The position numbers and the translations under genes were made by a program. From Candidatus Hydrogenedentota bacterium (GTDB taxonomy: Bacteria; Hydrogenedentota; Hydrogenedentia; Hydrogenedentales; JAEUWI01), in contig JACPGE010000004.1 of the NCBI GenBank assembly GCA_016182605.1, positions 1,402-65,401 of the forward strand: a stretch of 64,000 bases of DNA. The letters are read 5' to 3'. Positions 1-56,478 of the stretch are shown one piece after another (position 1 is the first letter of the stretch; each line of letters starts with the position of its first letter). Under the pieces are notes generated by a model. The model had not been told where the DNA came from. It was given only the letters and a program-made list of their open reading frames with translations, and ran no database searches.

Positions 1-2282
1 AAGCGATCGACAATCAATCGATCCTGGAGCAAGCCCGTGCCGTCGCCTCCAGCATTCAGGAGTACCGCAAGTCCTTTGACAGTGTGGTGGAGGGGTGGGT
101 CAAGAAAGGTCTGGATCATGAATCCGGCCTTCAGGGAGAATTCCGCGCGGCGGTTCACGAGGTCAGTTCCACCCTGAATCTCTACGAAATGGACGACCTC
201 ATGCGCGCCGTGCTCGCCATCCGCGTGGAGGAAGGGCGTTACCTGAGCACGGGATCGGCCGACGCCCGCACAAAACTGAATGACAGCGTCTCCGCCTATG
301 CAGATGCTCTGGAGACCGGCGCCTACGCCCCCGATGTCGCCGATCGGCAAAAATCTCTGCTCAAGCAATACCAGTCCCTGCTCGCCTCTGCGGCGCCCGG
401 GGCCGTTGCGCCCGAAGGATCCGCAGCCGCGGAAGAAGAAACTGCCGCCGGGGAAGCAGAACCTGCGGCGGCGGAAGCGGAGCCCCGGAAAGCGACGGGC
501 GCTGGCACTCCCGATTCCTTGGGAGAAGCCGGCGACGCCCTGGAAAACCTGCTCAACGCCTCCAATGTCAGTGGCGCCATCGAAAAAGTGCTCCTGGTGC
601 GCAAGGACGAGAAAGACTACCTGCTTCGGAGCGACGAAAAATACGTTGCGGCAGTACAGAAGCACATTACAGGGCTCAAATCGGACGTGGATGCGACCGG
701 GCTTCCGGAGGAAACAAAGGCCCGCTTAAACACCCTGCTCGACACCTACATCGGCAGTTTTAACGCGCTGGTGGCGGAAAACACGAACATCGTGGCCACG
801 ACGGCGGTCATGCGGGCAGAGGTCCAGAAGATCGAGCCCCTGGTCGAAGAAATCAGCAAGGACAGCGAAGCCCTGGAACTCCAGACCCGGGAACTGCTGG
901 CATCCCAGACCACCCAGCGCATCACCTTGGCCCTGGGCCTGGGCGGGGCCGCGGTGCTCATTGGCCTCGTGGCGGCGTTTCTCATTTCCAATGCCATTGC
1001 CCGCCCCATTGCCCAGGCCGTCAACTATGCGGGCCAGGTGGCCGGCGGCGATCTGACGCAAACCCTTTCCATCAAGGCGGGCGGCAAGAATGAGATCGGC
1101 ATGCTGGCCACAGCGATGAACACGATGACCGGGCGCTTGCGGGAGATTTTCTCCGAGATCCGCAAGAGTTCCGAAACCCTCAATGCCAGTGCGGACAATC
1201 TACAGAACAACGCCTCCAGCATGGCCGCCAACGCGGAAGAGACGAGTGCCCAGGCCGTCAGCGCCGCTACTGCCTGTGAAGAATCTTCCCAGAACGTGTC
1301 GAACATGGCGCACCTCACGGAAGAACTCTCCAGCAGCAGCAACACCATCGCCGCAGCGACCGAGGAAATCACCGCCAATCTCAACACCGTGGGCGCCGCG
1401 GTGGAGGAGATGTCCTCCAACATGGATGCCATTGCCAACTCCTCCAAGCGCACCAACGGCAACATGACCAGCGTGGCCGCGGCCATCGAGGAAATGTCCG
1501 CCTCGCTGGGGGAAGTCGCCAAGAGTTCCGCGAGCGCCGCCCAGGTGGCGAGCAAGGCCGCGGAAACGGTCGACAAGACCTCCCAGCGCATCAATGAACT
1601 GGGGCATTCGGCGCAGGCCATCGGCAAGGTGATGGAACTCATCACCGGGATCGCCGATCAGACGAACCTGCTCGCCTTGAACGCCACCATCGAGGCCGCC
1701 TCCGCCGGCGAGGCGGGCAAGGGCTTCGCGGTGGTCGCCACCGAGGTCAAGGAGCTCGCCAAACAGACGGCCACCGCCACGGAGGAGATCCGCGAACGGG
1801 TGGACGGCATGCAACGCGACACCAAGGAAGCCATCAAGGCCATCGCAGAGATCGTGTCGGTCATCAATGAGATCAACGGCATCAGTTCCAGCATCGCTGC
1901 CGCGGTGGAGGAGCAGACCGCCACCACGAACGAGATTGCCAGGAACGTCGGGGAGACCGCCACGGCCACCAGCCAGATCACCAACAACGTGCAAGAGGCC
2001 GCCATCGGAGCCAATGAGGTTTCCCGGAATGTCCAGGAGGCCATCAAGGCGGTGATGGAGATCAGCGGCAATATTGCGGAGTTCTCCGTAAACGTGAATG
2101 AAATTGCCCAAAGCGCTGCCGAAGCCGCCAAGGGCCTCAACGAAGTGGCTGAGAACGTCTCCACGGTTTCGTCCGCCGCGGAGATCGCCGCGGACGGCTC
2201 CGCCAACACCAGCGCCGAGTCCGCGGAACAGTCCGCCATGGCGGGCAGCTTGCGTGAAATGGTGGCCTTCTTCCGTGTATAA
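1..2282 (+). CDS. Methyl-accepting chemotaxis protein, 5'-truncated at the window edge (the reading frame is open back to position 3)
   Basis: Has a TM segment, a HAMP domain, and the conserved MCP signalling domain ([34 protein letters not shown]). There is no stop codon upstream in frame, so the gene starts before the window. Confidence 0.85.
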
Positions 2283-2423
2283 TCGGCGAGTCGTAGCGGA
2301 CCGGGGGCACCACCCGGCCGGACGGCGAAACGAAACAGACGCGGAAGGAAGATCTTAGGCCAGCCGTTTGCCACTCAAGCGGAGTCCGGGCTTGGACAGT
2401 TCCTTTCCGGAAAGGATTCGTTT

Positions 2424-3044
2424 TTGGCTTTCAACACTGTAGTGCGAATGGCCGGTTTGCTCACCGGCACGGTGTTCATGATGCTAACGGCGGGAGGGTG
2501 CGCGCACTCTTCCTCCGGATTTCTGGGAAACACGTACCTCTTTTCGCCCTACCCCAAGGCCAACGCCAAGGTGACCGAACTCGCCAAGATCCGCCTGAAG
2601 GATACCGGCCCGGCCCGCGCCGCCAGCGCGGAAAGCGAGTTCTCCGAGCCTTCGCTCTGGCCCATCGACTTCGCTGCCAAGGAAGTCGTCTCGCATTTTG
2701 GCTGGCGCGGCACCCGCAGCGGCGGCCCCTCCCGCATGCACAAGGGCATCGATATCAAGGCCCCCATGAATACGCCCGTGCGTTCCGTGGCCTCCGGTAT
2801 CGTCACCGAGGTGGGCGAGAACTCCGGCTACGGCAAGTTCATCGTCATTCAGCATGACGGGGGCTATTCGACGTGTTATGCCCACCTGAACCAGGTTTCG
2901 ACGGACCTCGAACGCTACGTGGAGCGGGGCGAGCCCATCGGACTCCTGGGAGATACCGGCAACGCGACCACGCCCCATGTGCACTTTGAAGTGCGGATGG
3001 ACGGCAAACCCGTCGATCCCTGGCTCTTCTTGCCCGCGGAATAA
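2424..3044 (+). CDS. M23 family metallopeptidase (LytM domain) lipoprotein
   Basis: Lipobox LTAGGC after a signal peptide. M23 motifs HKGIDIKAP...HVHFEV are present. Confidence 0.8.
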   Translation: MAFNTVVRMAGLLTGTVFMMLTAGGCAHSSSGFLGNTYLFSPYPKANAKVTELAKIRLKDTGPARAASAESEFSEPSLWPIDFAAKEVVSHFGWRGTRSGGPSRMHKGIDIKAPMNTPVRSVASGIVTEVGENSGYGKFIVIQHDGGYSTCYAHLNQVSTDLERYVERGEPIGLLGDTGNATTPHVHFEVRMDGKPVDPWLFLPAE

Positions 3045-3045
3045 T

Positions 3046-4014
3046 TCAGCGCGGGGAAGGGGCAACAGCACTGCGCGGGCGGTCACCGGTAACCAGGGTG
3101 ATCGCCCCGGGGAGCACCTCCACCCGCGCGGGGAGGTAGCCCAGCATCTCGCCGTCCGCCTCGACCTTGATCGGAAAGGCGGATTCGGCCGTAATGCGGC
3201 GTCCACGCAGGTATTTCACCACGTCGGGACGCTTGTGCAGGCGCCCACGGTAGATCTTGGGCAGGTTGAGCAAGGCGTCCAACAGGCCCACGCTGCCGAT
3301 GTGGTAGATGTCGAAGAGGCCATTGTCCATCCGGGCGTGGGGCGCCACATGCATGCCGCCGCCATCGTAGCTGCCGTTGGCGATAATGAACTCCTTCAGG
3401 AGTCCGCCAATCTCCGCGTCATCGATCGCAAAACGCACTTCCTGATCCCGGTAGATGAGCAAGGAACTGAGCGTGCCCACGAGATATGATACAAAGCCGC
3501 CAAAGCGCTTCGTGGTGTGGTTTACCCGATCGACCACCTCGCCGCCGATGCCGATACGCGCAATGTTCTGAAAATACCAGGTCCGCTCGCTGCCGTCGGC
3601 CTGGGTACAGGTAATGCATCCCACATCGGTGCGCAAGACCCGGGCGGAACCGGCAAAGGCCGCCGCGTCAATCCCCTGCGGGATCCCCAGCGAGCGCGCC
3701 AGATCCGATCCGGTACCGAAAGGGATGACCGCCATTTCCGCATCGGGCTGAATGGGGAGTCCGCCTTCAAAGAAACCGTTCAGAACTTCGAAGTGCGTGC
3801 CATCGCCGCCCACACTGATTATACGGCCGCAACCCGCTCTCAGGGCCGTGCGCACGAGAATGCTGCCGTGCCCCGGCCCTTCCGTGCGCAAGAGTTGAAA
3901 GGCGCCGAGTTCTTTTTTCAGGCGCGCTTCCAAAACGGGCCAGTGCCGCCCGGCACGCCCCTCGGCCGCCTGTGGATTCACCACCACAGCCACTTCTTTG
4001 CCCGCTTGGATCAT
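3046..4014 (-). CDS. Diacylglycerol/lipid kinase catalytic-domain protein (YegS/BmrU-like)
   Basis: DAGK_cat motif GGDGTHFEVLNGF. Length is about 320 aa. Confidence 0.7.
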   Translation of the reverse strand: MIQAGKEVAVVVNPQAAEGRAGRHWPVLEARLKKELGAFQLLRTEGPGHGSILVRTALRAGCGRIISVGGDGTHFEVLNGFFEGGLPIQPDAEMAVIPFGTGSDLARSLGIPQGIDAAAFAGSARVLRTDVGCITCTQADGSERTWYFQNIARIGIGGEVVDRVNHTTKRFGGFVSYLVGTLSSLLIYRDQEVRFAIDDAEIGGLLKEFIIANGSYDGGGMHVAPHARMDNGLFDIYHIGSVGLLDALLNLPKIYRGRLHKRPDVVKYLRGRRITAESAFPIKVEADGEMLGYLPARVEVLPGAITLVTGDRPRSAVAPSPR

Positions 4015-4035
4015 GCGAGGATCCGGGGCATTGGC

Positions 4036-5466
4036 TTAAACGCGCACATCGGAGTGGGCCGAATCGTAGCCTGCATTCCGCGCGAGGATCGGGTCGATCT
4101 CCGCCGCGATGAACTCCACCACCTGCATCGGCGCGCGGCCCACGAACTGGCGCAGGTCCAGCTCCGCGTCGATCTCGGCGCGGCTCATGCCAATCGCCGG
4201 ATCCGCCGCAAGCCGATCCAGGAGATCGTTGTCGAGCCCGTGCTCTTTCACCTGCGCCGCCGCCGCGTGGGAGTGGGTGCGGATCACCTCGTGCAATTCC
4301 TGCCGGTCCCCGCCGCGCTTCACCCCGGCCATGATGATGTTTTCCGTGGCCATGAACGGCAGTTCCGCCCAGAGATGGCGCTCGATCACTTTCGGGTAGA
4401 CCGCCGGCGCCTCCATCACGTTCAGGTAGAGATTGAGTGCGCCGTCCGCGGCGAGAAAGGCCTCGGGAAGCGACAAACGCCGAATCGCGGAATCGTCCAG
4501 GGTCCGTTCGAACCATTGAATCGCCGAGGTGAACTGACTGTGCAGGGGAGAGACCATGAGAAAACGCGCGAGCGCACAGGCCCGTTCGCAGCGCATGGGA
4601 TTGCGCTTGTAGGCCATGGCGCTGCTGCCCACCTGGGTCGATTCGAAGGGTTCTTCAATCTCCTTTAGGTTTTGCAGGAGCCGCATGTCCGTCGCCCACT
4701 TGTGAATGGACTCGCCCAGCCCCGCGAGCGCACGGAGCACATATGTGTCCACCTTGCGCGGATAGGTCTGGCCGGTGACGCCATAAGAGGACTTGAAGCC
4801 CAGGCGCTCCGCCACCTTCTGATCCAGCAGGCGCACCTTGTCGGAGTCCCCGTCGAAAAGCGCCATGAACGACGCCTGGGTACCCGTCGTGCCTTTGACG
4901 CCGCGGCAGCGCAGGTTCGCAAGCACGCCTTCCAGATCGGCAATGTCCATCGCCAGATCCTGCGCCCACAGACACGCGCGCTTGCCCACTGTCACCACCT
5001 GGGCCGGCTGATAGTGCGTGAAACCGAGCGTGGGGAGGTCCTTGTATTCCAGCGCGAAGGCCTTCAGGCGCGCGAGCACCGCCACCGCCTTCCGAAGCAG
5101 CATCTCCAAGCCTTCCCGCATCACGATCAGGTCGGTATTGTCGCCCACGTAGCAGCTCGTTGCGCCGAGATGGATGATGGGTTTGGCCTTCGGCGCGATG
5201 TCGCCCAGCGCGTGGATGTGCGCCATCACGTCGTGACGCGTCTGCTTCTCGTAGCGGTTCGCCGCCTCAAAATCGATGTCTTCCAGATGCGCGCGCAACT
5301 CGGCGATCTGTTCGCCGGTGATGGGAAGCCCCAGCTCTTGCTCGGCCTCTGCCAGCGCCAGCCAGCACCGCCGCCACGTGGAAAACTTCTTTTGCGCGCT
5401 CCACAGCGCCGCCATCTCTTTCGTGGCAAAACGCTCCACCAGCGGGGACACGTATTCCGTCGTCAT
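4036..5466 (-). CDS. purB: Adenylosuccinate lyase
   Basis: Fumarate-lyase signature [11 protein letters not shown]. The N-terminus [13 protein letters not shown]...W matches the B. subtilis-type PurB. Start was moved to the internal ATG at 5466. Confidence 0.9.
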
Positions 5467-44626: not shown

Positions 44627-47600
44627 TCACTTCTGACCCGGGACACGCACGGGGATGCCGCCGAGTTCGAGCACGTCACTGGTGCGTTCTCCTTCCATTT
44701 CAGGGACATCGAACTCGAACTCGGCATGGGCGATGACCGGGAGTTCCCAGGCCTGCGTGCCTTCCACCCGTTCAAACAGTTCGACATAGAGGGTGTAGTG
44801 TCCGGCCACGACATCGTCAATGCGGAATCCCGCGGCTTCATCCAGATAGAAGCCATATAGATAGCGTTCGAGTTCACGCTTCTTGCCTGCGTCGCTCTTC
44901 GGCCAGTCCTTGATCCATTTTTCCCTGGCCGCTTGAATCCAGGAGTCGAAATCCTTGGGCCAGGGCATCTCCGCGCCCTTGCTGAGGTTCCCGCGGGAGC
45001 ACTGTTTCAGCACAACCCTCGCTTTCAGATCCGGGGGCAGGAGCATCGTTCCCGTGACGGGCCGCCCCGAACCGCCGAGTTGCGCTGTGAGCGTCTCGCC
45101 CGCCACGGGTAGTACCCCGATGGAAATGGCCCGAATACGGGAGTCGCCGGGACTGTCTGGGTGGATGCGCTCCAGACGCGACACTTCCGGCAACACGCGA
45201 TCGAAGGTGAAACGCCCCTCGGCATTGGAGACGGTCTCGCTGGAGAAGTTGTATTGCGGCTCGCCTCTCACGCCGGAGCGCATGGGGAAAAGCGTAATGA
45301 TGGCATTCGAAGCCGGCGCTTCGGCGATGCGGACCACACCCTCGACGCGGGCCCAGGGAGTCAGGACAACGTCGGCATGCTCTTCAAAGTACTTGGCATC
45401 CGCCAGGGCGAATCCGGAATCATGGGTAGCGATGAAGAGGTAGGGGGACTCGCGTCCATCGAAAGCGTAGGCGCCGTCCGCATTCGTCACCTTGATTCTG
45501 TCCTTGTCCCGGACATCGAGCGCGCCATTGCGGATGGCGATATGGTATTCGGGAAGGGCGAGGGCATAGGCGGCGCCTGCTGCCTGGGCGCCATCGGGCG
45601 TGAGCAGCACGCCCTGGATACGCGGCGCGCGCTTGAGCCGGAAGTCACAAATCGTGCTGGCCTCCCGCGGATGCAACTCGGCCGAACGGGCAGTGAGATA
45701 GCCTTCCGCCTCGATGGTAATGCTAAACCCCGTATCGAATTCGCGCATGTTCATCACGTACACGCCCCTGTTGAGCGTGGCCACACCATCAATCTGCATG
45801 TTGCCGCTGTCATCCGCGGCTCGCACACGGAACGATTCCACGGGCTCGCCTGTGATGCCATCGATCACGGTGCCCGTAACGATAACGTTGTCGTTCAAGA
45901 CGATGATGTGTTCTTCATCGGTTGCCTCCAGCGATTTGGTCAGGCCGCGGCGGCCCTCCTTCTGGAAGCTGAGTTCGACGGGGCCTTTCGGCGCCTCATC
46001 CCAGGTGAAGCGCCCTTGCGCGTCTGTAGAAGTCCGCAACTTTATGGCCGTGGCGTCGGGCGTAATGAGCGGCTCCCGATCGATGGTTGCCACGGTGACG
46101 CCGGCCAGGGGCTGATTGCGCTGATCGATGACCCGGCCACGGAGGAGTCGGCCCACGGGCAGCACGATGGTGACTGGAGCCATATCCTGTGCCGCCTGCA
46201 CCTTGGTAATCACAGCGACATATCCCGGCGCATCGGCCTTGAGATCGTAGGGCTGCGCAACACAATGATCGAAGCGGAAGAGGCCATCCTTGCCGGTGGT
46301 CGCTTTGCGATTGGTGGCCGTCAGCACATTCTCCCGCTGCCGCGCCTCCAACTGAGAAACGACCGCACCGGGAACCGGCTGGCCGGCCTCGTCGGCCACC
46401 AGGCCGGTCAATTCAATGCCCTTGTCGATGACGAGCGTCTGCGTTCCATTGATCAGGCGCGCGGTGGAAAGCGATCCCGCGGCATAGGGCGTGTCCGCGT
46501 AGCCGGGATGGCGGAGCACGAGCGACAACTGCGCGAGATCGCTTGGACCATGCACGCACTCCCAGACGCCGCTCTCGCCTGTCACTTCCGTGTGTTCGAG
46601 CAGCCCGCCCTTCTTGAAACTGCGCTTGCCCGGAATGGGCAGCGCGACCTGCACCCCGGCCACGGCCGCGCCTTGGGCATTGGTGACGCTCCCGCCGATC
46701 TTGAGGGATTTCTCCAGTTCTATGACCAGCTTGTCCGAGGGATTGAGGATCCAATCCACTGTTTTGGAAAGGTAACCATCGGCATGGACCGTGAGGGCCG
46801 CCTTGTCGCCGGTGCGTTTGCTGTAGAAGGTCACCGCGCCGCGGGCGTCGGTCCAATAGTAGCGGGTCTGCACGTTCAATTCGGGGGCGTACTGAAAATC
46901 GACGAAAGCGCCCGGCACGGGGCTCCGATCGCGGGCGCTCAACACCTCAAAGGAATGGGCGGCGCCAGCCGCGGGATAGTTGATTTGAAGGCCATTGCCG
47001 GATTGCAGGGCCGTCACGGACTCCGGATCGATCGTTTCCGGAAGCCGGATCGTGTTCAAGCCCGACAGGGCGCGCAGCACATCCAGGCCTTCCGCGCTTA
47101 CCTGGGTGTTAAAGAGATACAATTCACGCAGGCCCTCCAGGCCGCGCAGGTAGGCCAGGCCCGCATCGCCCACCGAGGTGACCTCCAGATTCAGCCCTTG
47201 CAGTTGATGCAGGTTTTGCAGCGCCTGCAAGCCCGCGTCCGTGATGAAGGTGCCTTCCAGCCCCAGAATGCGCATATTGGGCATGTTGGCCACATACTGC
47301 AGGCCCTCATCCCCGAAGTGGCCCATCCAGAGATCGAGATACTCCAGTTCCGTCATGTTCTGCAAGTATTGCATGCTCTCGTCCGACACGCCGGTCAGAT
47401 TCAGATCCAGATAGCGCAGGTTGTTGAGCCCGGCCAAATACTGCATGCCGCCGTCGGTCACCTGCGTGCGCCCCACGGAAAGGTACTCCAGACTGCTCAT
47501 GTCCGCGACGTACTCCAGCGCGGAATCGGAGATTTCGGTGTTTTCAAAGGTCAGTTCGCGCAAGGCCATGCCCTGCAAATGCTGTAGATCGCCGTCCCGT

Positions 47601-49003
47601 ATCTCCGTCTGCCGGAAGTCTATCGATTGAATGTCGTCCGGGCCCAGATAATCCAGGGGGGAGAGATCGGTCACTGCGTTGTTGTCCAGCACCAGCCGCA
47701 CCTGCTGGCCTTCCGGAATGACCACGTTGCCCTGGGCCGGCGCGAGCGGCGTCCAGCCTTCATTCAGGCCCTCGCCCCAGGGAATTTGATAGCCGGTATC
47801 GCCCCAGGGGCGGATAAGGATTTGCCCCATGGACCAGGTCTCGGGCAGGACGATGGTCCGTTCCGGTGGCGGAGATTGCTGGTTTTGCGCGTAGGCCCGC
47901 CCCAGTTCCGTCCAGCCGAGCCCGAGCGTGAACAAGAAGACGAGCACGAGGCCAATGAAGCCGCTGAGGGGGCGGGCTTCGCCTGGCGCCTTCACCCCCG
48001 CAAGCCGGCGAATCCGCATGAGCAGATCGCCCCCCGTGGCGGCCAGAGCAAATCGGGAAGACCGCTGACGCAACTCTTCGATACGGGTCAAGGCGCGGGC
48101 GTAGCCCAGCCGGTCGCCGCACACCATCACCGCGAGATCGTCGCAACAGAGTTCGCGCTCCATGCGGATGCGCCGTGAAACCCACCAGACCACGGGATGA
48201 TAGAAGAGGAGGGTCTCGATCAGTACCTGGACCAGATTGAACATGTAGTCGTGGCGGCGGATATGGGCGAACTCGTGGGCGAGTATCGCGGTCAATTCTT
48301 CGCGGGAGAGTCCGGTCAGCATGGATGCCGGGACAAGAATCACCGGTTTCATCCACCCGATGGTCGCGGGCGCCTGTGCTATCCCGGATTTCAGCAGGGC
48401 AACCGATCGCGCAACGCCCAGTCTTGCCTGGAGTTCCGCCAGAAGGGGCGCCCAATCTTGAGAAATGGGTTCGACCAAGGTACGGCGAAGACGCTGCACC
48501 AGCAGCCAACCCGCCACGTTGTGCAGCGAAATCAGAAATACGCCGCAGAACCAGAACAGCAGCAACCACGGCACGACGGGCGCCGACTTCCGCTTGCAGA
48601 GGTTTAGAAGCCCCTGAAACGTCATGGGAGCTTCGGGACGAACTGCCGGAGCAGTAGCAGGGGAGAAGTGCGCGACGGGCGCCTCAATATGGTTTAGCGG
48701 CGAAATGGGGGGCGTGCTAGCGTACTTCGGCTGTGATTGGAACTGCGTGGCCACAGGTATCGCGCTATCGGACGCGACGGACTCCAGAGTCAGGCAACAT
48801 GCCGTGATCACCGGCGCCAATGCCATGGCAAGCAAAGCGCCGTAGCACACGAGGTAGCGCGATTGCGGAGAACGGTTTCGCAACGCCGTGAGCGCCAGCA
48901 TCAGGAGAAGGGATAAACCCGCGCCTTGCCAGACGAAGTGCATCAGACTCCAGCCTATGCGCTGGGCGAGGGGAAACTCAGCAAGCATCTCAAGCGTAAT
49001 CAT
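44627..49003 (-). CDS. Giant BlaR1/MecR1-family (M56 peptidase) membrane sensor fused to leucine-rich repeats and multiple CarbopepD_reg-like beta-sandwich domains
   Basis: N-terminal TM region with HExxH (ILAHEFAHIRRHDY). LRR array (LxxLxLxxTxVxDxGLxxL, about 8 units). Repeated carboxypeptidase-regulatory-like domains toward the C-terminus. Confidence 0.75.
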   Translation of the reverse strand: MITLEMLAEFPLAQRIGWSLMHFVWQGAGLSLLLMLALTALRNRSPQSRYLVCYGALLAMALAPVITACCLTLESVASDSAIPVATQFQSQPKYASTPPISPLNHIEAPVAHFSPATAPAVRPEAPMTFQGLLNLCKRKSAPVVPWLLLFWFCGVFLISLHNVAGWLLVQRLRRTLVEPISQDWAPLLAELQARLGVARSVALLKSGIAQAPATIGWMKPVILVPASMLTGLSREELTAILAHEFAHIRRHDYMFNLVQVLIETLLFYHPVVWWVSRRIRMERELCCDDLAVMVCGDRLGYARALTRIEELRQRSSRFALAATGGDLLMRIRRLAGVKAPGEARPLSGFIGLVLVFLFTLGLGWTELGRAYAQNQQSPPPERTIVLPETWSMGQILIRPWGDTGYQIPWGEGLNEGWTPLAPAQGNVVIPEGQQVRLVLDNNAVTDLSPLDYLGPDDIQSIDFRQTEIRDGDLQHLQGMALRELTFENTEISDSALEYVADMSSLEYLSVGRTQVTDGGMQYLAGLNNLRYLDLNLTGVSDESMQYLQNMTELEYLDLWMGHFGDEGLQYVANMPNMRILGLEGTFITDAGLQALQNLHQLQGLNLEVTSVGDAGLAYLRGLEGLRELYLFNTQVSAEGLDVLRALSGLNTIRLPETIDPESVTALQSGNGLQINYPAAGAAHSFEVLSARDRSPVPGAFVDFQYAPELNVQTRYYWTDARGAVTFYSKRTGDKAALTVHADGYLSKTVDWILNPSDKLVIELEKSLKIGGSVTNAQGAAVAGVQVALPIPGKRSFKKGGLLEHTEVTGESGVWECVHGPSDLAQLSLVLRHPGYADTPYAAGSLSTARLINGTQTLVIDKGIELTGLVADEAGQPVPGAVVSQLEARQRENVLTATNRKATTGKDGLFRFDHCVAQPYDLKADAPGYVAVITKVQAAQDMAPVTIVLPVGRLLRGRVIDQRNQPLAGVTVATIDREPLITPDATAIKLRTSTDAQGRFTWDEAPKGPVELSFQKEGRRGLTKSLEATDEEHIIVLNDNVIVTGTVIDGITGEPVESFRVRAADDSGNMQIDGVATLNRGVYVMNMREFDTGFSITIEAEGYLTARSAELHPREASTICDFRLKRAPRIQGVLLTPDGAQAAGAAYALALPEYHIAIRNGALDVRDKDRIKVTNADGAYAFDGRESPYLFIATHDSGFALADAKYFEEHADVVLTPWARVEGVVRIAEAPASNAIITLFPMRSGVRGEPQYNFSSETVSNAEGRFTFDRVLPEVSRLERIHPDSPGDSRIRAISIGVLPVAGETLTAQLGGSGRPVTGTMLLPPDLKARVVLKQCSRGNLSKGAEMPWPKDFDSWIQAAREKWIKDWPKSDAGKKRELERYLYGFYLDEAAGFRIDDVVAGHYTLYVELFERVEGTQAWELPVIAHAEFEFDVPEMEGERTSDVLELGGIPVRVPGQK

Positions 49004-49007
49004 GAGA

Positions 49008-49391
49008 TTACTCCTTCATCTCTTTGAGGAGTTGATTGATTTCTTCCAGTTCTTCCGGCGTGGCCGATTTTGTGGAGAGCGCCTGCATGATCAGCTTGCT
49101 TGCGGACCCTCCGAAGGCACGCTGGATCAAATCCCCCACGAGTTGCCGCTGCATCTTTTCCTCTTCCAGGGCAACCCGGTAGGTGTGCGGCCGCCGTGCA
49201 TCGTCCCGCAGCAACAGCCCCTTCTCATGCATGATCTGCATCAGCTTAAGCGCCGTCGTATAGCCTGTGGGGCGCTCCGCGCTCAACGCCTCCTGCACGT
49301 CCCGCACGGTCGATGGGCCCCGCTCCCAGAGCACATTGAGTATGGCCAGTTCGCCGACGGTAGGGCGGGGCGGGGTCTTCGGGGGCATGAT
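49008..49391 (-). CDS. BlaI/MecI/CopY-family transcriptional repressor
   Basis: Winged helix LAILNVLWERGPSTVRDVQEAL...TALKLMQIMHEKGLL. Lies 4 nt upstream of the BlaR1-like gene. Start was set at MPPKT. Confidence 0.8.
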   Translation of the reverse strand: MMPPKTPPRPTVGELAILNVLWERGPSTVRDVQEALSAERPTGYTTALKLMQIMHEKGLLLRDDARRPHTYRVALEEEKMQRQLVGDLIQRAFGGSASKLIMQALSTKSATPEELEEINQLLKEMKE

Positions 49392-49556
49392 CGGGCTCCT
49401 TTGGTGGTCGTCTTGGACGCTGAAGCCGAGTATATACGAAGACCTTCGTTTTGTCAACGAAGAATTTCGTACTCGCCCACACCCGGAGGAATGCGGGGAT
49501 AGCCCGCACATTTCACCACTTGGAGCCTCAACGCGCGAGCGGACATTGGGAGCACG

Positions 49557-49865
49557 ATGAAATGTGCTCAGCGCGAAGCCGGTGCTGGAGCAGCCCAGGG
49601 GGGCGGCCAGGTTCCCGAGGGCCTCGCCGGCATGCCCCTGATTGCGATCCGGCTTGAGGGGGACCGTGTGCTTGCGCAGTCAACGGACGGCAAGTACACG
49701 CGTATGGATGCCGACGGCACGTTGAGCGAGATGACCGAGGCGCCCATGATCAAGCAAGACCCCGCCGTCGCCGCGTTTGGCGATGCAGCGCGGGCCGTGG
49801 CGAGCGACAAACTCCTCATGACCGCGACAATAAAAGGCCGTTTGCTCCACTTTCTGTCCCATTGA
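49557..49865 (+). pseudogene. Gene fragment paralogous to residues about 65-135 of the downstream gene at 54397..56478
   Basis: About 205 nt (49600..49803) are roughly 88% identical in DNA to 54592..54798. Homology is lost on both sides. Confidence 0.55.
49600..49803. repeat. About 205-bp direct repeat, left copy (its partner is 54592..54798)
   Basis: Direct nucleotide comparison: ccaggttcccgagggcctcgccggcatgcccctg... in both copies. Confidence 0.8.
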
Positions 49866-49983
49866 ATACTAGCTCGTGTCGCTATACTATAGTATCTGCA
49901 TTATCGCGATGGAGCATGAGGCGCAATAAGCGCGGCCTCATGCAAGGCCCGCCGTGGGCGTATCGGGTGTGCGCATTCTATAG

Positions 49984-52900
49984 GTGGCAATGACTCAACA
50001 GCCGGACACACTACATGCATTAATCGGGCAATGGCGCGCGAAACACAACAAGCGCGCGATGGGAGGCATATGGGCGCTCTCCGGTTTTTCCTTTCAAATC
50101 GCGATCTTCTTGGTTCATTTTTTTGATACCGTGGGGCGGGAAAACGAAGACCCCCAACAACTCCCCGAATTCGAGCAACTTTCCGATCTCCTCTGCCCAC
50201 AGGACAGACGTTATCTCCTGGTGCAAGTCAAGCGCACGCTGAACAGGACCAGACTCAAAGAGGCGTTGAAAGAGTTCTACACCATCCTGGCGCTCTCCCG
50301 GGAAGAAACCCCCACCCTTACGAGCCAGCTACGTTTCCAAGTGGCCTGTAAGTACCGCCCGAGCCCGAGTTTGACCCCTTCCGACATCACGATGGAGGAA
50401 GTCGTGGACAATGGTGACCCTGAAACTTGGCAATTGCTTATCAGGGCCTTTGATGAAGAAAATCCCATCATTGAAGAGCCGGATCCCCTGGACAAGCTGT
50501 ACGCCGTTCTGTGGACTCATGGGATTAAGAACAGGGCCGGACTCATTGAGCATTGTGCCGGCCGGTTGCTGGAAAGCTTTGGCAACCCAGGCCCCAACGT
50601 TAGGCATAGCCTGCTGCGCGATCTTGAAAGCCTGTTTCATGACGCTCCCAGACGGGAAGGATGGACCAGCGAATTCAAACTTCTCTTGGGGAACGACGTA
50701 GCCCTCGATCCCAGTCATGAGGGCTCCCTGGAGGTCCTGACGGGGCAGTTACCCCGGCTCGAACACCTCCGGAAGGGCATGTTTCGCGAGCGCAAGGCGC
50801 TATTCAGCAATCTCTGGGAGCAGTTTAACTCATGGCAGACGCAACTCGAAGAGCAAGACCTCGGAGACGAGACCCCCATCTTTTGGATCAGCGGCCGCTC
50901 CGGCGAAGGCAAGTCTGTCCTGCTACTCCAACTTGTCGCGGAATGTATCCGCAAGCATGGCGATATCCCCCTCCTTCACCTGAAATCAGGGGAAGACCTG
51001 CCTCTCTTCCTGGACCACGCACCTAAACGCACCAGTATGAACGACCAAGTATTCGGGCGCTACTTCGCCGTAATTGACGATATCTACGACCTGCGCAATC
51101 GCGATGACTGGGCGGATCGTATTCGCCGGGCGCGTGCTTTAGAGATTCCCCCGGTCGCCATCATCACCTGCGGGCCTACGGAACAGCGGGAACAGTTCGA
51201 AAACAGTCTGAAAGATGAATTCAGGGTCGTTCATTTTGAGGTCCCCCTCCTGGACCAATCTGAAATGGAGGATTTTATTGAATGGTACGAGAATCGGACC
51301 GGCAAGGTGTGTGAGCGGTCGGTATTCTCGGAGCAAAACCCGCTCCTGGTCTTGTTTATGTTCGAATTGGCCCGCGGCGAAAAGATTTCGGCCTTTGCCA
51401 AGCGCATTAAGAGGCGCCTGGAAGCCATGCAAATATTTGAGGCGGCCCGTGCCATTGCGGCCACGTGGGCCCTTTACATCGACGCCCCCATTGCATTGCT
51501 GGAAGACCAGGAAAAACGCGACGCCCTGGACCGCCTCTGCAAGGACGACCAGCTTCATTTCCGCATATCCTATTCAGAGGATGGAAGCACGGAGGAAGGC
51601 GTCCGTTTCGCCCATGCCCACATAGCCTGGTTGCTCTACACAGAATGGGCAGAACTACCTCCAACGCCCTTCGCAAAATCGTGGGCTCGCGACCTGGACC
51701 GGAGCTTGGGCCTTTGGGAATCCCAAGGAAACTACGCTGGCGCCAGCATCTTGTTGCACCGGGCTTTCCGCGAAACACGGCTCGCAAACGGTCTTTACGT
51801 GGAGCTGAATACCGATCATTGCCAGTTGCTCCAGGAATTGTACCGGCTGCATTGTCAGAGGAATGCTAATCAGCCCTTGCAAACCCTGATGCCGCGTTGG
51901 CTGGAAATGTTGTGCAAGTCCCGTGGACTGGTACTCAAACCCGACCCAGTGCTCGCCACGCTCAAAGCGATGGAAGACGAATCCGCAGTCAGTTCCGTAC
52001 AGGGCTACACCGTTGGCTGGCTTTGGCGTCTAACTGCTCTGCGCCCCCCAACCGAACAGGGCCGCATAAGAAATATGGTCCAAAGATTTCTGGACCAATT
52101 CCCGGAAGCTCCAGGCTCAGGGACCGTAGTAGGCCAGATCTCTAAATCGAACCAATCCGATCAGCAAATTCACCAATGGGTATTGAGCTGGATCCAAGAA
52201 AACCCATTGAACCCACAGACCGTTCTTACGCTCTCGCCCATGCTCGCATCTCATTCAGGAAATCATGAATTAATAGATGTAGCCAAGACTTGGCTATCCA
52301 AATACCCTGAACTACCTCAAGCACATTGGCTGATAGCAAGGCTGGTGGCGTGCAATCCAGGGGACGAGATCGTCAAGAATATTGCCACAGATTGGTTGAA
52401 GGGATTCCCCGAACATCCGCAGGCATATCAAGTAATTACTGCCCTTGTACGCGCGCGGCCTGGTGAAAAAAATGTGGTTGATATCGCGAAAAAGTGGCTG
52501 AACGACTTCCCCAAACATCTTCATGCATACAACTTGATCGCGGCACTCGTGGCGGCGAACCAAGTAAACGAGGACATCATTGGAATCGCCACGGAATGGC
52601 TACAGAACTTCCCCGATCATCCACAGGCATACATCTTGATCGCGACACTCGTGGCGGCGAACCAAGTAAACGAGGACATCATTGGAATTGCCACGCAATG
52701 GCTACAAGACTTCCCCGATCATCCACAGGGATACCAAGTGGTGGCGGCGCTCGTGGCGGCAAATCAGGGGGACGAGGACATCATTGGAATTGCCACACAA
52801 TGGCTAAAGGACTTCCCCGATCATCCACAGGCATACATCTTGATCGCGACACTCGTGGCGGCGAACCAAGTAAACGAGGACATCATTGGAATCGCCACGG

Positions 52901-53853
52901 AATGGCTACAGAACTTCCCCGATCATCCACAGGGATACCAAGTGGTGGCGGCGCTCGTGGCGGCAAATCAGGGGGACGAGGGCATCAATAGAATTGCCAC
53001 ACAATGGCTAAAGGACTTCCCTGAACAGCCACAGGCATACCACGTAGTAGCGGCGCTCGTGGCGGCGAACCAGGGAGACGAAAGCACCAAAATATTCGCC
53101 ACCGAGTGGCTGGACGAAAACTCCAATCATCCGCAGATCCATAAAGTGATCGTGACCTTGATCTCAGCGTGGCCCGATGATCCAATGGTCGAAAAGACCG
53201 CCACCGAATGGTTGTCCAACAACGAAAACCATGCGGGATATGTCGAAATGCTCTCCACAATCATCGCTCGAAGCGTTGGCGCCGAGAAGTGGCTGCGCTG
53301 CGGTGAAGCCTATCTCGCTCGGCCCAATTGCCGAAACCCAGAGGGAATCATTTCCGTCCTGGTAACGGCCGGAAAAGCCAATGCAGACGCCGTTGACCGC
53401 GCCCTTGACTACTTCGACGCTCCTTCAACACCGAAAAAATCCGCCAGCTTCGTCAGAATCCAGCTATCGAAGGCGTTGGCCAATAATCTAGAGAACACGG
53501 TAGCCTACCTCTACGGCGTACTGAATGAAGAACGCAATCGCTTCATATGCGATACTCTGGCATATGGATTGGCCCAGAATCCAGAGGGATTCGCAGATTT
53601 CATCGAGGTCCATGCGCCCGACCTCATGTCCGAGTATGAGCAACGCATACTCTGCAAACTGATTCTCCTTAAGCAAAGTACAGACGCATTCGATGAATGG
53701 GTTGCCACCTGGCTCGTACGAAACTACCGTCGCCCAGGCTATGGTGGCGTCCTGCAAGCCATCCGCAATCGTCCGGCCCTGTGGGGGCGGCTGATCGAAC
53801 TCAACGCCCTCAATTCCGAAATCATTTGGGACTACGAACACCCGCCGATCTGA
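49984..53853 (+). CDS. Large P-loop NTPase with an unassigned about 290-aa N-terminal domain and a C-terminal array of 34-aa helical repeats (STAND-like architecture; candidate defence or signalling protein)
   Basis: Walker A WISGRSGEGKSVLLLQL (about aa 303). Walker B FAVIDDIYD (about aa 361). The C-terminus has about 10 tandem 34-aa units (IIGIATEWLQNFPDHPQAYILIATLVAANQVNED). The N-terminal domain (MGGIWALSGFSFQIAIF...DLLCPQDRRYLLVQVKRT) matches no family I can name. Confidence 0.6.
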   Translation: MAMTQQPDTLHALIGQWRAKHNKRAMGGIWALSGFSFQIAIFLVHFFDTVGRENEDPQQLPEFEQLSDLLCPQDRRYLLVQVKRTLNRTRLKEALKEFYTILALSREETPTLTSQLRFQVACKYRPSPSLTPSDITMEEVVDNGDPETWQLLIRAFDEENPIIEEPDPLDKLYAVLWTHGIKNRAGLIEHCAGRLLESFGNPGPNVRHSLLRDLESLFHDAPRREGWTSEFKLLLGNDVALDPSHEGSLEVLTGQLPRLEHLRKGMFRERKALFSNLWEQFNSWQTQLEEQDLGDETPIFWISGRSGEGKSVLLLQLVAECIRKHGDIPLLHLKSGEDLPLFLDHAPKRTSMNDQVFGRYFAVIDDIYDLRNRDDWADRIRRARALEIPPVAIITCGPTEQREQFENSLKDEFRVVHFEVPLLDQSEMEDFIEWYENRTGKVCERSVFSEQNPLLVLFMFELARGEKISAFAKRIKRRLEAMQIFEAARAIAATWALYIDAPIALLEDQEKRDALDRLCKDDQLHFRISYSEDGSTEEGVRFAHAHIAWLLYTEWAELPPTPFAKSWARDLDRSLGLWESQGNYAGASILLHRAFRETRLANGLYVELNTDHCQLLQELYRLHCQRNANQPLQTLMPRWLEMLCKSRGLVLKPDPVLATLKAMEDESAVSSVQGYTVGWLWRLTALRPPTEQGRIRNMVQRFLDQFPEAPGSGTVVGQISKSNQSDQQIHQWVLSWIQENPLNPQTVLTLSPMLASHSGNHELIDVAKTWLSKYPELPQAHWLIARLVACNPGDEIVKNIATDWLKGFPEHPQAYQVITALVRARPGEKNVVDIAKKWLNDFPKHLHAYNLIAALVAANQVNEDIIGIATEWLQNFPDHPQAYILIATLVAANQVNEDIIGIATQWLQDFPDHPQGYQVVAALVAANQGDEDIIGIATQWLKDFPDHPQAYILIATLVAANQVNEDIIGIATEWLQNFPDHPQGYQVVAALVAANQGDEGINRIATQWLKDFPEQPQAYHVVAALVAANQGDESTKIFATEWLDENSNHPQIHKVIVTLISAWPDDPMVEKTATEWLSNNENHAGYVEMLSTIIARSVGAEKWLRCGEAYLARPNCRNPEGIISVLVTAGKANADAVDRALDYFDAPSTPKKSASFVRIQLSKALANNLENTVAYLYGVLNEERNRFICDTLAYGLAQNPEGFADFIEVHAPDLMSEYEQRILCKLILLKQSTDAFDEWVATWLVRNYRRPGYGGVLQAIRNRPALWGRLIELNALNSEIIWDYEHPPI
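52265..53280. repeat. Tandem 102-bp (34-aa) intragenic repeats. Central copies are near-identical in DNA.
   Basis: For example, the unit starting at 52570 recurs exactly at 52876 (306 bp = 3 units away). The repetition creates artefactual ORFs in alternate frames. Confidence 0.85.
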
Positions 53854-54396
53854 CGGATTCTCTTTTAAGCCAACCCGCGCAATTCACCGTTGCCTGCCGC
53901 CACGGCAAAAAGAAGTAGGCCCAAATCATTGGACACCGAAATCGGATTGTTAGATGAATCCGCTCTGAAATGGCGCTAACTTTTCGTGCGGTATTGAGTT
54001 CGGATGCAGCTTTCAAGATTTTCTACTTGTTTGATAGGGCGCAGGCGGGTACTTCGACGCGGAATGCCTACGCTCATCGAGCGAAGGCCTACTTTAACGG
54101 CGTGCCTGATAGTAGCACACCGAGCGGCGTGATTGGGTGAGGCGGCAATAGTTGGCGCCATTCAATCCGCTCTGGGTTTCGACTGCGGCTTTGCCGCGCC
54201 TTCACCGTTCGCGGATCTTATTCTCAATTCGAATCGACAGGTCACCAGCCCATCGACCCCATGCGACCATCGTCTGAGCGCGCGGGAAGATCCCGGAAAT
54301 GGAGACAAAATCATGATAGACATGCGGGCGGCGCTTGTATTGTTTTTCGAGTTTTTGCTACGGTGTTCACTCCCGGAATCCAAAAGGAACAAGCCC

Positions 54397-56478
54397 ATGC
54401 TGCCATTCGCCTGTCGGCTTCTCACCATCACACTGCTCATCACTGCCACCGCCGCTGCGGAAGATCTCGGCGAACTTCCGTTTCCGTTGTGGAACGTTGT
54501 GCCGCTTCTGAATGACGTGGACGATCCCCGCGCGGCCTTCCGCCGCCCCGAAGGGTCGCTGCCCATCGTCGTGCCGCCGTTTGTGGAGCATGTGCGCGTC
54601 CAGGTTCCCGAGGGCCTCGCCGGCATGCCCCTGGTTGCGATCCGGCTGGAGGGAGATAGCGTGGTGGCGCAATCGAAGGAGCGCAACTATACGCGCATGG
54701 ATGCCGACAGCACGCTAAGCGAGATGACCGAGGCGCCCATGATCAAGCAGGACCCCGCCGTCGCCGCGTTTGGCGATGCGGCGCGGGCCGTGGCGAACGT
54801 GGGGGGGAGCATGTGGCTTGCGACGGCCACCGGGCTCTACGTGCGGGCGGCCGGCGCAAGGGACTTTGCGCGCTTCGAGACCTACGGGGTGGGCGGGCCG
54901 CTCTCGACGGACATCCGCGATCTCGCGGTCGATTCGAAAGGCACGCTCTGGATCGCGACGTCTCTTGGACTCAATGCGCTGGACAGCAGCGGCGCCTGGC
55001 GCGCCATTCGCGGTCGCGACGGCCTGCCCCAGGAAGACCTGACTGCGATCGCGATCGACGGCGAGGATCGGCTCTGGATCGGCTCCACCGCGGGACTCAT
55101 TCTCTATGTTCCGAACGCCACGGACCGCCAGTGGTACTACCGCGCCGGCGAACGCTACGTGCCCAACGACCTGATTCACGATGTGGCGGTGAGCGCGGAC
55201 GGCCACAGGGTCTACACCGCCACGGAGGGTGGGCTTGGCCGGCTCGACCTGATTGGCACGACCCTGTTGGAACGCGCGGAGAGGATCGAGAAGCGGGTGA
55301 ACGAACGGCACCGCCGCTTCGGGCTGGTGGCGGCGTGCACGCTTGACGATCCCTGGAACTCCACCGCGCACACGATAGGCGACAACGACAACGACGGTCT
55401 GTGGACTTCGTACCATGTGGCGGCCATGGCACTGGCCTATGCGGTAACCCGGGACGCAGCCGCGAAGGCTTCGGCCAAGGAGAGCATGGACGCCCTGTAT
55501 ATGCTGCAAGACGCCTCGGGGATTCCCGGCCTGGTGGCGCGCAGTGTGGTCACCCTGGAAGAGGGCAAGAGCAAAGACAAGCAATGGCGCCTCACCCCGG
55601 ACGGGACCAAGTATTGGAAGAGCGACACCTCCTCGGATGAGATCGACGGCCACTACATGGCGTTTTATACGTACTGGGAACACATTGCGAAGCAGGACCC
55701 GGAAGAAGCGGCGATCTGCGTTGAACACGTGCGCAATCTGACCGACTACATCATCAAGAACGATTACCAGCTCATCGACTGGGACGGCAAGCGCACCCGG
55801 TGGGGCTTCTGGTCGCCCGAATTGCTCAACGATCAGCCGCAACATTTCACCGAAACGGGGCTGAACAGCCTGCAAATGCTGTCCTTCCTCAAGACAGCGC
55901 ACTACATCACCGGGGATGCCAAGTACCAGAAGCACTACATGAAATTGATCAAGGAACACCACTACCTCGCCAACGTACTGCTGGAGAAGAAGGTTTACCC
56001 CGATATGGACAACCACTCCGACAACCAGCTTGCCTACGTTGCGTGGTACCCCATACTCCAGGCGGAGCAGGACCCGGAGATCCGCGAGGCGCTCCACGCG
56101 GCGGTGCGGCGGCACTACAAGTGCCTTTCTCTCGATCGGACGGCCTTCTTCTACTACGTGACGGCCACCATCGATCCCGACTACGTGGACCTCGAGGCTG
56201 CCACCCATGAGCTGACCCTATTCCCGACGGATCGCCGTCAATGGGCCTACAAGAACAGTCATCGCGCCGACGTGGTGTTCAATCCGCGCGTCGACCGATT
56301 CGGCAAGCGCCAACTCATGACGGTGTTGCCCCTGGATGAGCGGGGCATCGACAAGTGGAACAGCAACGTCTATCTTCCCGACGAAGGGGGCAGTGGCAAC
56401 CACGAGGACGACGGCGCCGCGTATCTGTTGCCCTACTGGATGGGGCGCTACCACGGCTTCATCAAAGAAGCGGAATAG
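54397..56478 (+). CDS. Secreted protein with an N-terminal beta-propeller-like (two-component-regulator-propeller-like) region and a C-terminal (alpha/alpha)6-glycosidase-like region
   Basis: Signal peptide MLPFACRLLTITLLITATAAA. Reg_prop-like repeats (GTLWIATSLGLNALD, DRLWIGSTAGLILY). The C-terminal glycosidase assignment is weak. Confidence 0.4.
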   Translation: MLPFACRLLTITLLITATAAAEDLGELPFPLWNVVPLLNDVDDPRAAFRRPEGSLPIVVPPFVEHVRVQVPEGLAGMPLVAIRLEGDSVVAQSKERNYTRMDADSTLSEMTEAPMIKQDPAVAAFGDAARAVANVGGSMWLATATGLYVRAAGARDFARFETYGVGGPLSTDIRDLAVDSKGTLWIATSLGLNALDSSGAWRAIRGRDGLPQEDLTAIAIDGEDRLWIGSTAGLILYVPNATDRQWYYRAGERYVPNDLIHDVAVSADGHRVYTATEGGLGRLDLIGTTLLERAERIEKRVNERHRRFGLVAACTLDDPWNSTAHTIGDNDNDGLWTSYHVAAMALAYAVTRDAAAKASAKESMDALYMLQDASGIPGLVARSVVTLEEGKSKDKQWRLTPDGTKYWKSDTSSDEIDGHYMAFYTYWEHIAKQDPEEAAICVEHVRNLTDYIIKNDYQLIDWDGKRTRWGFWSPELLNDQPQHFTETGLNSLQMLSFLKTAHYITGDAKYQKHYMKLIKEHHYLANVLLEKKVYPDMDNHSDNQLAYVAWYPILQAEQDPEIREALHAAVRRHYKCLSLDRTAFFYYVTATIDPDYVDLEAATHELTLFPTDRRQWAYKNSHRADVVFNPRVDRFGKRQLMTVLPLDERGIDKWNSNVYLPDEGGSGNHEDDGAAYLLPYWMGRYHGFIKEAE
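54592..54798. repeat. About 205-bp direct repeat, right copy, inside the 5' coding region of 54397..56478
   Basis: See the left copy at 49600..49803. Confidence 0.8.

Follow-up and report, generated by a model that had tools for sequence, protein, structure and literature searches.

Bacterial STAND nucleoside triphosphatases (NTPases), including the Avs proteins, are now regarded as pattern-recognition receptors for phage proteins, and how their large sensor arms gain new specificities is largely unexplored. Avs3 and Avs7 consist of a Cap4 nuclease followed by a STAND NTPase and tetratricopeptide repeats (TPRs), and the sensors of most defence STAND proteins are TPR-like (PMC13581612). Some STAND sensors are diversified by diversity-generating retroelements (DGRs), which act through error-prone reverse transcription into a C-type lectin domain (PMC10907252). 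In fungal NOD-like receptors (NLRs), highly internally conserved (HIC) repeats exhibit repeat-number polymorphism and positive selection on their concave face (PMC4986451), and TPR and WD repeats with 80-90% internal identity have been described in general terms for bacterial NLRs (Dyrka et al. 2020, bioRxiv 10.1101/2020.01.06.895854). Here, we have analyzed a gene in a 64,000-nucleotide stretch of contig JACPGE010000004.1 from a Candidatus Hydrogenedentota bacterium (the window; all positions count from its first letter), which encodes a predicted nuclease, a STAND NTPase and a C-terminal array of near-identical 34-residue units. We consider it probable that this array is the recombining TPR-like sensor arm of an Avs-like, NLR-like nuclease-STAND protein.

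The gene, the domains of its product and the repeat units are located as follows:

49984 to 53853, plus strand: whole gene for nuclease, STAND NTPase and repeat sensor, 1289 residues (open reading frame (ORF) list; family protein P0001 is 100% identical).
49984 to 50838, plus strand: N-terminal domain, residues 1-285, predicted PD-(D/E)xK nuclease of the Cap4/LmuA type (motif, profiles).
50839 to 52116, plus strand: STAND NTPase module, residues 286-711, with a P-loop core and helical and winged-helix-like domains (Walker motifs, Pfam, AlphaFold2 (AF2), Foldseek).
52117 to 53418, plus strand: TPR-like alpha-solenoid, residues 712-1145, presumed ligand sensor (AF2, DSSP, Foldseek, NCBIfam).
52096 to 52503, plus strand: degenerate upstream units -4 to -1 (33-65% DNA identity to the core).
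52504 to 53115, plus strand: homogenised core array of six 102-bp units (identity matrices, exact repeats, synonymous and non-synonymous counts, Tandem Repeats Finder, charge).
53116 to 53319, plus strand: degenerate downstream units 6 and 7 (34-50% DNA identity to the core).
53419 to 53850, plus strand: C-terminal helical domain, residues 1146-1289, outside the 34-residue array (structure model; conserved in the family consensus).

At 52504-53072, Tandem Repeats Finder detects an array of period 102 (score 732, 5.6 copies, 82% matches), which is accompanied by super-periods of 204 and 306 bp and sits within the plus-strand ORF of the gene. Units were cut in a 102-bp register (34 residues) starting at 52504 and are numbered k, with 0 to 5 forming the core. 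Pairwise DNA identity is 70-96% among the core units and 30-65% between the core and the flanking units on both sides; homogeneity peaks in the middle of the array and falls off toward both edges, and the identity of the core units is beyond chance. Two subtypes alternate in the core, A (units 0, 1 and 3) and B (units 2 and 4, with unit 5 as a diverged B), giving the order A', A, B, A, B, B'. The closest pairs are units 1 and 3 and units 2 and 4, each with 96% DNA identity (4 mismatches in 102) and with 94% and 88% amino acid identity, respectively. The two-unit blocks 1-2 and 3-4 agree at approximately 91% of 68 residues (own calculation), and the mean pairwise identity among units 0-4 is approximately 75% for protein and 85% for DNA. 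The longest exact repeat measures 84 bp (52544 versus 52850, offset 306), and further exact repeats measure 82 bp (52607 versus 52811) and 69 bp (52709 versus 52913).

An initial annotation, made from the sequence without database searches, had described about 10 tandem units inside the NTPase gene at 52265-53280, the central ones being identical or nearly identical in DNA. The tandem array is real, as is evident from the Tandem Repeats Finder result and the unit identity matrices, and the count and extent are fair, with 9-10 units picked up by a unit hidden Markov model (HMM) on the sequence and 13 hairpins in the structure model. The central units are indeed nearly identical, reaching 96% in DNA, but no pair of core units is identical over its whole length; the example given at the time (52570 versus 52876) lies within the 84-bp exact match. 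The same annotation had proposed recent expansion or gene conversion, and the divergence data bear this out. Synonymous divergence (pS) is 0.00 between units 2 and 4 and 0.09 between units 1 and 3, compared to approximately 0.35 between the subtypes. Since it is close to zero in the youngest pairs, the likeness of the units comes from recent common descent of their DNA and not from constraint at the protein level. Unit 3 equals unit 1 over nucleotides 1-82 and unit 0 over nucleotides 40-101, and is a clean one-breakpoint mosaic of these two; the contrast between identities within and across proteins, described below, points the same way. No other copy of a unit, which might serve as a silent donor cassette, was found in the window at the DNA or protein level.

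A two-unit super-period (204 bp, 68 residues) can be followed at 52606-53013, where subtypes A and B alternate. Similar super-periods occur in relatives, in which AARPDDD and AAQPDND alternate (P0032) or Q and K alternate at unit position 24 (locus L012). Two hairpins may often be duplicated together.

The units evolve in concert throughout the family. At least one pair of units with at least 80% amino acid identity is present in 19 of 48 proteins, several of which reach 100%. Each core unit of the window protein shares 85-94% identity with its closest partner in the protein, whereas identity to any unit of another protein is at most 59%. Arrays with the same 102-bp period are present at homolog loci, with 6.2 copies (93% matches), 10.4 copies (89%) and 9.9 copies (91%). 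In two related lineages, the number of units differs between otherwise near-identical genes. Proteins P0032, P0109 and P0110 have 7, 10 and 6 units, respectively; P0032 and P0109 show no difference in 981 flanking residues, and their loci (L001 and L021) share 99.7-99.8% DNA identity over approximately 20 kb of synteny apart from a 306-bp indel in the array. In the second lineage, P0024 has 9 units and P0093 has 10, and between their loci, which are approximately 99% identical in DNA, there is a 102-bp indel. Some units in these copy-variant alleles recombine variants that are present in the others, and such hybrid units are the pattern that unequal exchange would produce. The copy-number variation that the initial annotation had anticipated is thus seen in relatives, with alleles of 6, 7 and 10 units in one lineage and of 9 and 10 in the other. 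For the window gene itself, a scan of metagenome contigs with peptide patterns found no second allele, and its protein cluster has a single member.

A second expectation of that annotation, that such arrays are an assembly hazard, is supported by the contigs of loci L005 and L009, both of which end inside arrays. This raises the question of whether the array in the window is partly an assembly product, that is, a real gene whose unit number or order was collapsed, expanded or shuffled by short-read assembly. The source is a contig of a metagenome-assembled genome (MAG), the contig of L011 ends approximately 120 codons past the NTPase-helical region, 3 of 51 family proteins stop inside the array, and short-read assemblies are known to omit or create units of this kind (PMC12222747). 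On the other hand, the longest exact repeat (84 bp) is shorter than the usual 150-bp reads, which makes the units distinguishable in principle, and the reading frame stays intact through the array into the conserved C-terminal domain. In addition, the solenoid model is regular (predicted local distance difference test (pLDDT) score of 93) and independent assemblies of relatives show similar arrays, the 10-unit allele of P0093 having been assembled without difference in three samples. An assembly origin of the unit number or order is therefore unlikely, although it deserves some weight. More generally, short-read MAGs probably under-count and mis-assemble genes of this type, whose length and unit number in databases are untrustworthy without long reads.

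The array is predicted to encode the central hairpins of a solenoid of 13 helix-turn-helix hairpins. In an AF2 model of residues 688-1289 (pLDDT 93.3), the hairpins follow a 34-residue period with regular DSSP assignments, and the homogenised units correspond to hairpins 5-10, at the solenoid's centre. With units written in the register DFPDHPQAYxLIAxLVAANQxxEDIIGIATxWLx, helix A occupies positions 8-18 and helix B positions 23-35. Foldseek matches of the solenoid are generic TPR, HAT and HEAT proteins (Prp6/Syf1, IFT-A, OGT, Naa15 and Ski3). At the sequence level, no Pfam TPR family matched the window protein at E ≤1, and NCBIfam PEP_TPR_lipo gave a partial match with E 1e-13, far below its cut-off. 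Because the structural features of TPRs are present while curated TPR sequence models are not matched, we use the label TPR-like. The solenoid is presumed to be the ligand sensor.

Variation within the units is concentrated at a few positions. Within the arrays of 24 proteins, variability is highest at unit position 10 (0.49), with positions 13, 14 and 31 next. Whole-unit ratios of non-synonymous to synonymous change are uninformative in the window array by itself, and a signal emerges only when codons are considered singly and several arrays are combined. When codons were pooled over five independent arrays with units of at least 80% DNA identity, codon 10 showed 11 additional residue types with no synonymous variant, and codon 13 showed 7; a count of 11 at any of the 34 codons has a probability of approximately 0.001 by chance. 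Codons 10-14 carry 30 non-synonymous and 6 synonymous variants, as against 53 and 39 elsewhere (Fisher p = 0.007). The ten units at locus L012 hardly vary outside positions 10-14, apart from the alternation of Q and K at position 24. The hot-spot codons 10-14 fall in helix A, the first helix of the hairpin, and positions 10, 13, 14 and 17 share one face of it, which, by analogy with TPR proteins and with the TPRs of fungal NLRs (PMC4986451), probably lines the concave, ligand-binding groove. The initial annotation had suggested that copy-number change could tune sensor specificity; support for this is indirect, through the concentration of replacements at unit codon 10 and codons 10-14.

Near-identical units of 34 residues (102 bp) that differ mainly at a few fixed positions are also what would be expected of a modular nucleic-acid reader like a transcription activator-like effector (TALE) or pentatricopeptide repeat protein, with unit positions 10 and 13 as the code and with the same unit length as in TALEs. 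However, the helix lengths of 11 and 13 residues are those of TPRs, the hot spot is located within helix A and not in the inter-helix loop, the fold matches are protein-binding TPR, HAT and HEAT solenoids, and no TALE-family sequence match was reported in Pfam and NCBIfam scans. The core units (residues 841-1044) are also strongly acidic (5 K+R versus 26 D+E, net charge -21 over 204 residues), far more so than the remainder of the protein, in contrast to the basic DNA-binding superhelix of TALE-like repeats. Such acidity speaks against the binding of nucleic acids and would be compatible with a basic protein as ligand. On the helix geometry and the strong negative charge, a reader of this type was ruled out, and we regard it as extremely improbable.

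A DGR was also considered and rejected. The PADLOC model RT_UG20, for a reverse transcriptase associated with defence, matches residues 940-1038 (nucleotides ~52801-53097) with E 1e-7 over model positions 367-462 of 511; this match falls on the repeats, reflects repeat-to-repeat similarity and involves no reverse transcriptase, which suggests similar helical repeats in the C-terminal part of UG20 proteins.

The remainder of the protein has the layout expected of a STAND receptor, with an N-terminal effector, an NTPase and a C-terminal repeat sensor. The ORF starts with GTG at 49984 (1289 residues), and the identical NCBI protein MBI2421336.1, annotated as a 'hypothetical protein' in a MAG of Candidatus Hydrogenedentes, starts with ATG two codons on, at 49990 (1287 residues). 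A scan for promoters and terminators around the gene gave nothing above shuffle expectation. Residues 286-711 are modelled as a STAND NTPase with a fold like that of Apaf-1, CED-4 and NLRs. Walker A (GRSGEGKS, G304-S311, nucleotides 50893-50916) and Walker B (D365-D366, nucleotides 51076-51081) do not vary among 41 sequences. In Pfam, the highest-scoring family is nSTAND_NTPase5 (E 5e-5, 23.6 bits versus a cut-off of 34), which is also the top NTPase family in all seven relatives scanned (25.6-33.3 bits). With an AF2 model of residues 1-720 (pLDDT 86.6), the top Foldseek matches in the PDB are SAMD9, EfAvs5, Avs4, CED-4 and Apaf-1 (E 7e-10 to 4e-5), the query being 720 residues long and the matches dominated by its NTPase part. 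A search of the family profile against PDB sequences returned only designed or generic repeat proteins and mS29/DAP3 (E ~0.7).

For the N-terminal domain, a Cap4/LmuA-type nuclease is predicted with moderate confidence from profiles and motif. The candidate motif E64, D68 and Q81-V-K83 (nucleotides 50173-50232) contains four residues, E64, D68, Q81 and K83, that are invariant or nearly so in sets of 41 and 14 homologs. Among 14 N-termini of the family, 7 match PADLOC LmuA (best E 4e-6) and 3 match PD_DExK (best E 1e-4). The nuclease-profile matches of the window protein itself are weak (E 0.017-0.23, PD_DExK at 0.017), as are those to Pfam DUF6602 and Cap4_nuclease; a PDB search with the profile of the N-terminal domain retrieves only NucC, with E 0.56, at the nuclease motif. 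In the model, the motif residues lie in or beside strands 69-73 and 76-85, which are flanked by helices 35-51 and 88-108 and followed by strand 116-124; this order would be compatible with a restriction-endonuclease-like core.

Non-immune regulators exist among STAND NTPases with TPR sensors, and the fold matches include a maltose regulator of the MalT type (8bob, 26th in the Foldseek list). The protein might accordingly be a housekeeping or regulatory STAND protein of the MalT/AfsR type, whose ordinary TPR scaffold became near-identical through a neutral one-off duplication; the ratio of non-synonymous to synonymous divergence (pN/pS) between the subtypes is below 1, and no defence gene is among the neighbours in the window. 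This explanation appears rather improbable to us. The window protein has no helix-turn-helix (HTH) or other DNA-binding output domain, its N-terminus matching nuclease profiles instead, and a one-off duplication accords poorly with homogenised arrays that arise independently in many lineages, with near-identical alleles that differ in unit number and with the same codon being variable in five independent arrays. The unrelated genomic contexts and the patchy taxonomic distribution of the family also speak against it.

The family is small and unnamed. A word-indexed search yielded 91 relatives, the closest of which are 35-42% identical over the full length, and an exhaustive search with residues 1-720 found 539, 437 and 193 clusters (counted at 50% identity) at E ≤1e-3, ≤1e-10 and ≤1e-30, respectively, among 1.84 billion. 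Homologs from cultivable bacteria include WP_284220641.1 of Brevundimonas denitrificans and WP_410831487.1 of Paraburkholderia. The 11 genome loci retrieved belong to at least seven differently named bacterial groups, with Hydrogenedentes, Paraburkholderia, Thermoanaerobaculia, Sorangium, Stellaceae, Thalassospira, Zixibacteria, Acetobacter and Rhizorhabdus represented. No conserved operon partner was found across eight unrelated contexts, in each of which the gene stands alone. At L002 it adjoins BrnTA and ParDE toxin-antitoxin genes, and at L017 a DDE transposase gene is nearby together with several genes for HTH proteins and a DUF4365 gene. Complete family proteins have 2-14 detected units.

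Several other features of relatives were observed. P0013, P0021, P0024, P0025 and P0028 carry an extra C-terminal tail of approximately 70 residues (LPKAG.RV.AEL.EERTKK.GW.ARH...AFAW) that is absent from the window protein, and more distant relatives have Pfam S1 (PF00575), TIR or CHAT matches. Upstream of the Hydrogenedentes homolog at L005, positions 457-4962 encode an unrelated protein of 1501 residues with PASTA-like repeats of approximately 68 residues and FGE-sulfatase-like C-terminal domains. The period-204 arrays of that locus (74-78% matches) belong to this PASTA-repeat protein and were rejected as relatives of the window array.

Based on these observations, a mechanism can be proposed. 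Intragenic homologous recombination between units, by unequal crossing-over or gene conversion, would keep the units alike, and the exact stretches of 69-84 bp that they have in common may serve it. Such recombination would reshuffle the few variable residues and change the number of units, and this reshuffling would alter the length and shape of the sensor and the chemistry of its ligand-binding surface. If the protein works like Avs3 and Avs7, a foreign protein, probably from a phage, would bind to the solenoid and release autoinhibition, and NTP-dependent oligomerisation might then bring the nuclease domains together, leading to DNA cleavage and abortive infection. A stronger version, in which the array is a contingency locus whose units recombine frequently through a RecA-type process, giving cells of one clonal population different unit numbers and orders and maintaining in a single gene a phage-selected standing repertoire of sensors, has only a small chance of being correct. 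In its favour, alleles at loci that are 99-99.8% identical differ by 1-4 units and carry hybrid units, but the unchanged recovery of these alleles in 2-6 independent samples argues against a very high switching rate. If true, it would be a prokaryotic, recombination-based counterpart to the diversification of sensors by DGRs and to fungal repeat shuffling.

Whether the foreign ligand comes from a phage is a separate question. The protein could be a conflict sensor with another task, such as kin or non-self discrimination or the detection of another mobile element or a toxin, considering that the closest analogue of its repeat behaviour is found in the fungal allorecognition NLRs of heterokaryon incompatibility and that the acidic core points to no particular phage protein. 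Yet the protein is cytoplasmic, without a secretion signal, in a unicellular host, where products of phages and plasmids are the likeliest foreign ligands, and all characterised STAND proteins with a Cap4 nuclease sense phage proteins (PMC13581612). We therefore see just a slender chance for a role of this kind.

Several observations weigh against a recombining sensor arm in an Avs-like nuclease-STAND protein. With regard to selection and recombination, pN/pS between the subtypes is approximately 0.4 (window array only), the youngest unit pairs show 12 non-synonymous and 3 synonymous changes, which is roughly neutral, the concave placement of the hot spot comes from its position in the helix and not from coordinates, and the differences in unit number are drawn from short-read assemblies and could partly be assembly errors. 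With regard to the protein, Q occupies the place of the canonical E of ExK in the N-terminal motif, the nuclease domain is known only by profile and motif, the window protein and its relatives all stay under the nSTAND_NTPase5 cut-off (23.6-33.3 versus 34 bits), and the full-length window protein matches none of the PADLOC AVAST/Avs models. Finally, no recognised defence gene lies adjacent to the STAND gene in the window.

The surroundings of the gene may reflect how it was acquired. Three further features are relevant:

49807 to 54400, no strand: low-GC stretch with the STAND gene as its sole long ORF (composition profiles).
49596 to 49806, plus strand: left copy of a direct repeat, 211 nucleotides, a start-less in-frame fragment of a gene for 781 residues (repeat search, alignment).
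54589 to 54799, plus strand: right copy of the direct repeat, inside the intact gene for 781 residues, ORF 54133-56478 (repeat search, alignment).

The GC content is 0.47-0.59 in 49807-54400 (4.6 kb), compared to 0.61-0.69 in the flanks, and the STAND gene is bracketed by the imperfect direct repeat of 211 nucleotides (88% identity, no indels, spacing 4993), whose left copy is within ORF 49557-49865 and matches residues ~152-225 of the 781-residue protein. Low GC together with a bracketing direct repeat suggests that the stretch with the STAND gene was acquired horizontally, and 49807-54400 looks like an acquired island with partial target duplication. No tRNA gene was found in the window and no integrase at the island. 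The neighbours in the window encode BlaI, a BlaR1-like protein and a secreted propeller-type protein. The latter is the product of the 781-residue ORF (54133-56478, plus strand), which has a Reg_prop (propeller) match; a Met near 54397, opening the signal-peptide-like MLPFACRLLTITLLITATAAA, is probably its true start, and the TTG start at 54133 would add approximately 88 residues of low-GC sequence. On the minus strand, 44627-49003 encodes a very large BlaR1-type M56 peptidase (1458 residues) fused to leucine-rich repeats and several CarboxypepD_reg domains, and a BlaI-type repressor gene (49008-49511, minus strand) lies directly upstream of it. The BlaR1-type gene thus has an unusual sensor-protease architecture adjoining the island.

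Compared to Avs3 and Avs7, the window protein likewise combines a predicted PD-(D/E)xK nuclease, a STAND NTPase and a helical-repeat sensor in one polypeptide encoded by a stand-alone gene, and it resembles Avs4 and Avs5 in fold only; profile searches of the PDB found no solved Avs by sequence. Its NTPase differs from those of Avs3 and Avs7 in being closest to nSTAND_NTPase5, and its sensor consists of regular near-identical 34-residue units, whereas that of SeAvs7 is a bilobed TPR domain enveloping the capsid protein (PMC13581612). PF25199 (nSTAND_NTPase5) is the best-scoring family for the window protein and its relatives, all of them under the gathering threshold, and the family is a divergent sister group of PF25199 and not a curated member of it. 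In sequence searches with PADLOC, Pfam, NCBIfam and PDB profiles, the protein did not qualify as a member of any named Avs family, of PF25199 or of the curated TPR families. With LmuA of Lamassu, Cap4 and NucC it shares profile matches on the catalytic strand-strand-helix region and an invariant D..QxK, but its nuclease domain is fused to a STAND NTPase and is not part of a Lamassu or CBASS operon. As in STAND proteins diversified by DGRs, the sensor domain of a bacterial STAND conflict protein would be under accelerated diversification; the window gene, however, has no reverse transcriptase or template repeat, and recombination of tandem units would diversify it instead.

The closest parallel in repeat behaviour is provided by the fungal HIC NLRs (HET-E, HET-D, the NWD family and Pa_2_10340, with WD40, ANK or TPR repeats), which also join a STAND NTPase to C-terminal repeats that are near-identical in DNA and share concerted evolution, repeat-number polymorphism, hot spots in helices and unreliable short-read assembly (PMC4986451; PMC12222747). 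They differ in that the window protein is bacterial, with a nuclease effector and an NTPase of another clade. By the HIC criterion of repeats with at least 85% identity over at least 100 residues (Dyrka et al. 2014), the window array is borderline, while P0012, P0032 and L012 lie clearly above it; other HIC features, repeat-number polymorphism in relatives and replacement hot spots at fixed unit positions, are present. The same phenomenon was described in prokaryotic STAND proteins by Dyrka et al. (2020), who dealt with NB-ARC/TPR and NACHT/WD proteins of filamentous bacteria and with amyloid signalling motifs and did not cover a nuclease and nSTAND5-like family or analyse single codons or strains. 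The behaviour of the repeats is therefore a known phenomenon, of which this gene is a good example and not a new kind. With near-identical 34-residue modules, variable unit number and focused variation, the family offers a simple testable system for relating unit shuffling to ligand recognition, and what is added to the known systems, at the family level, is a hot spot at codon 10 and differences in unit number between near-identical alleles in a bacterial nuclease-STAND family.

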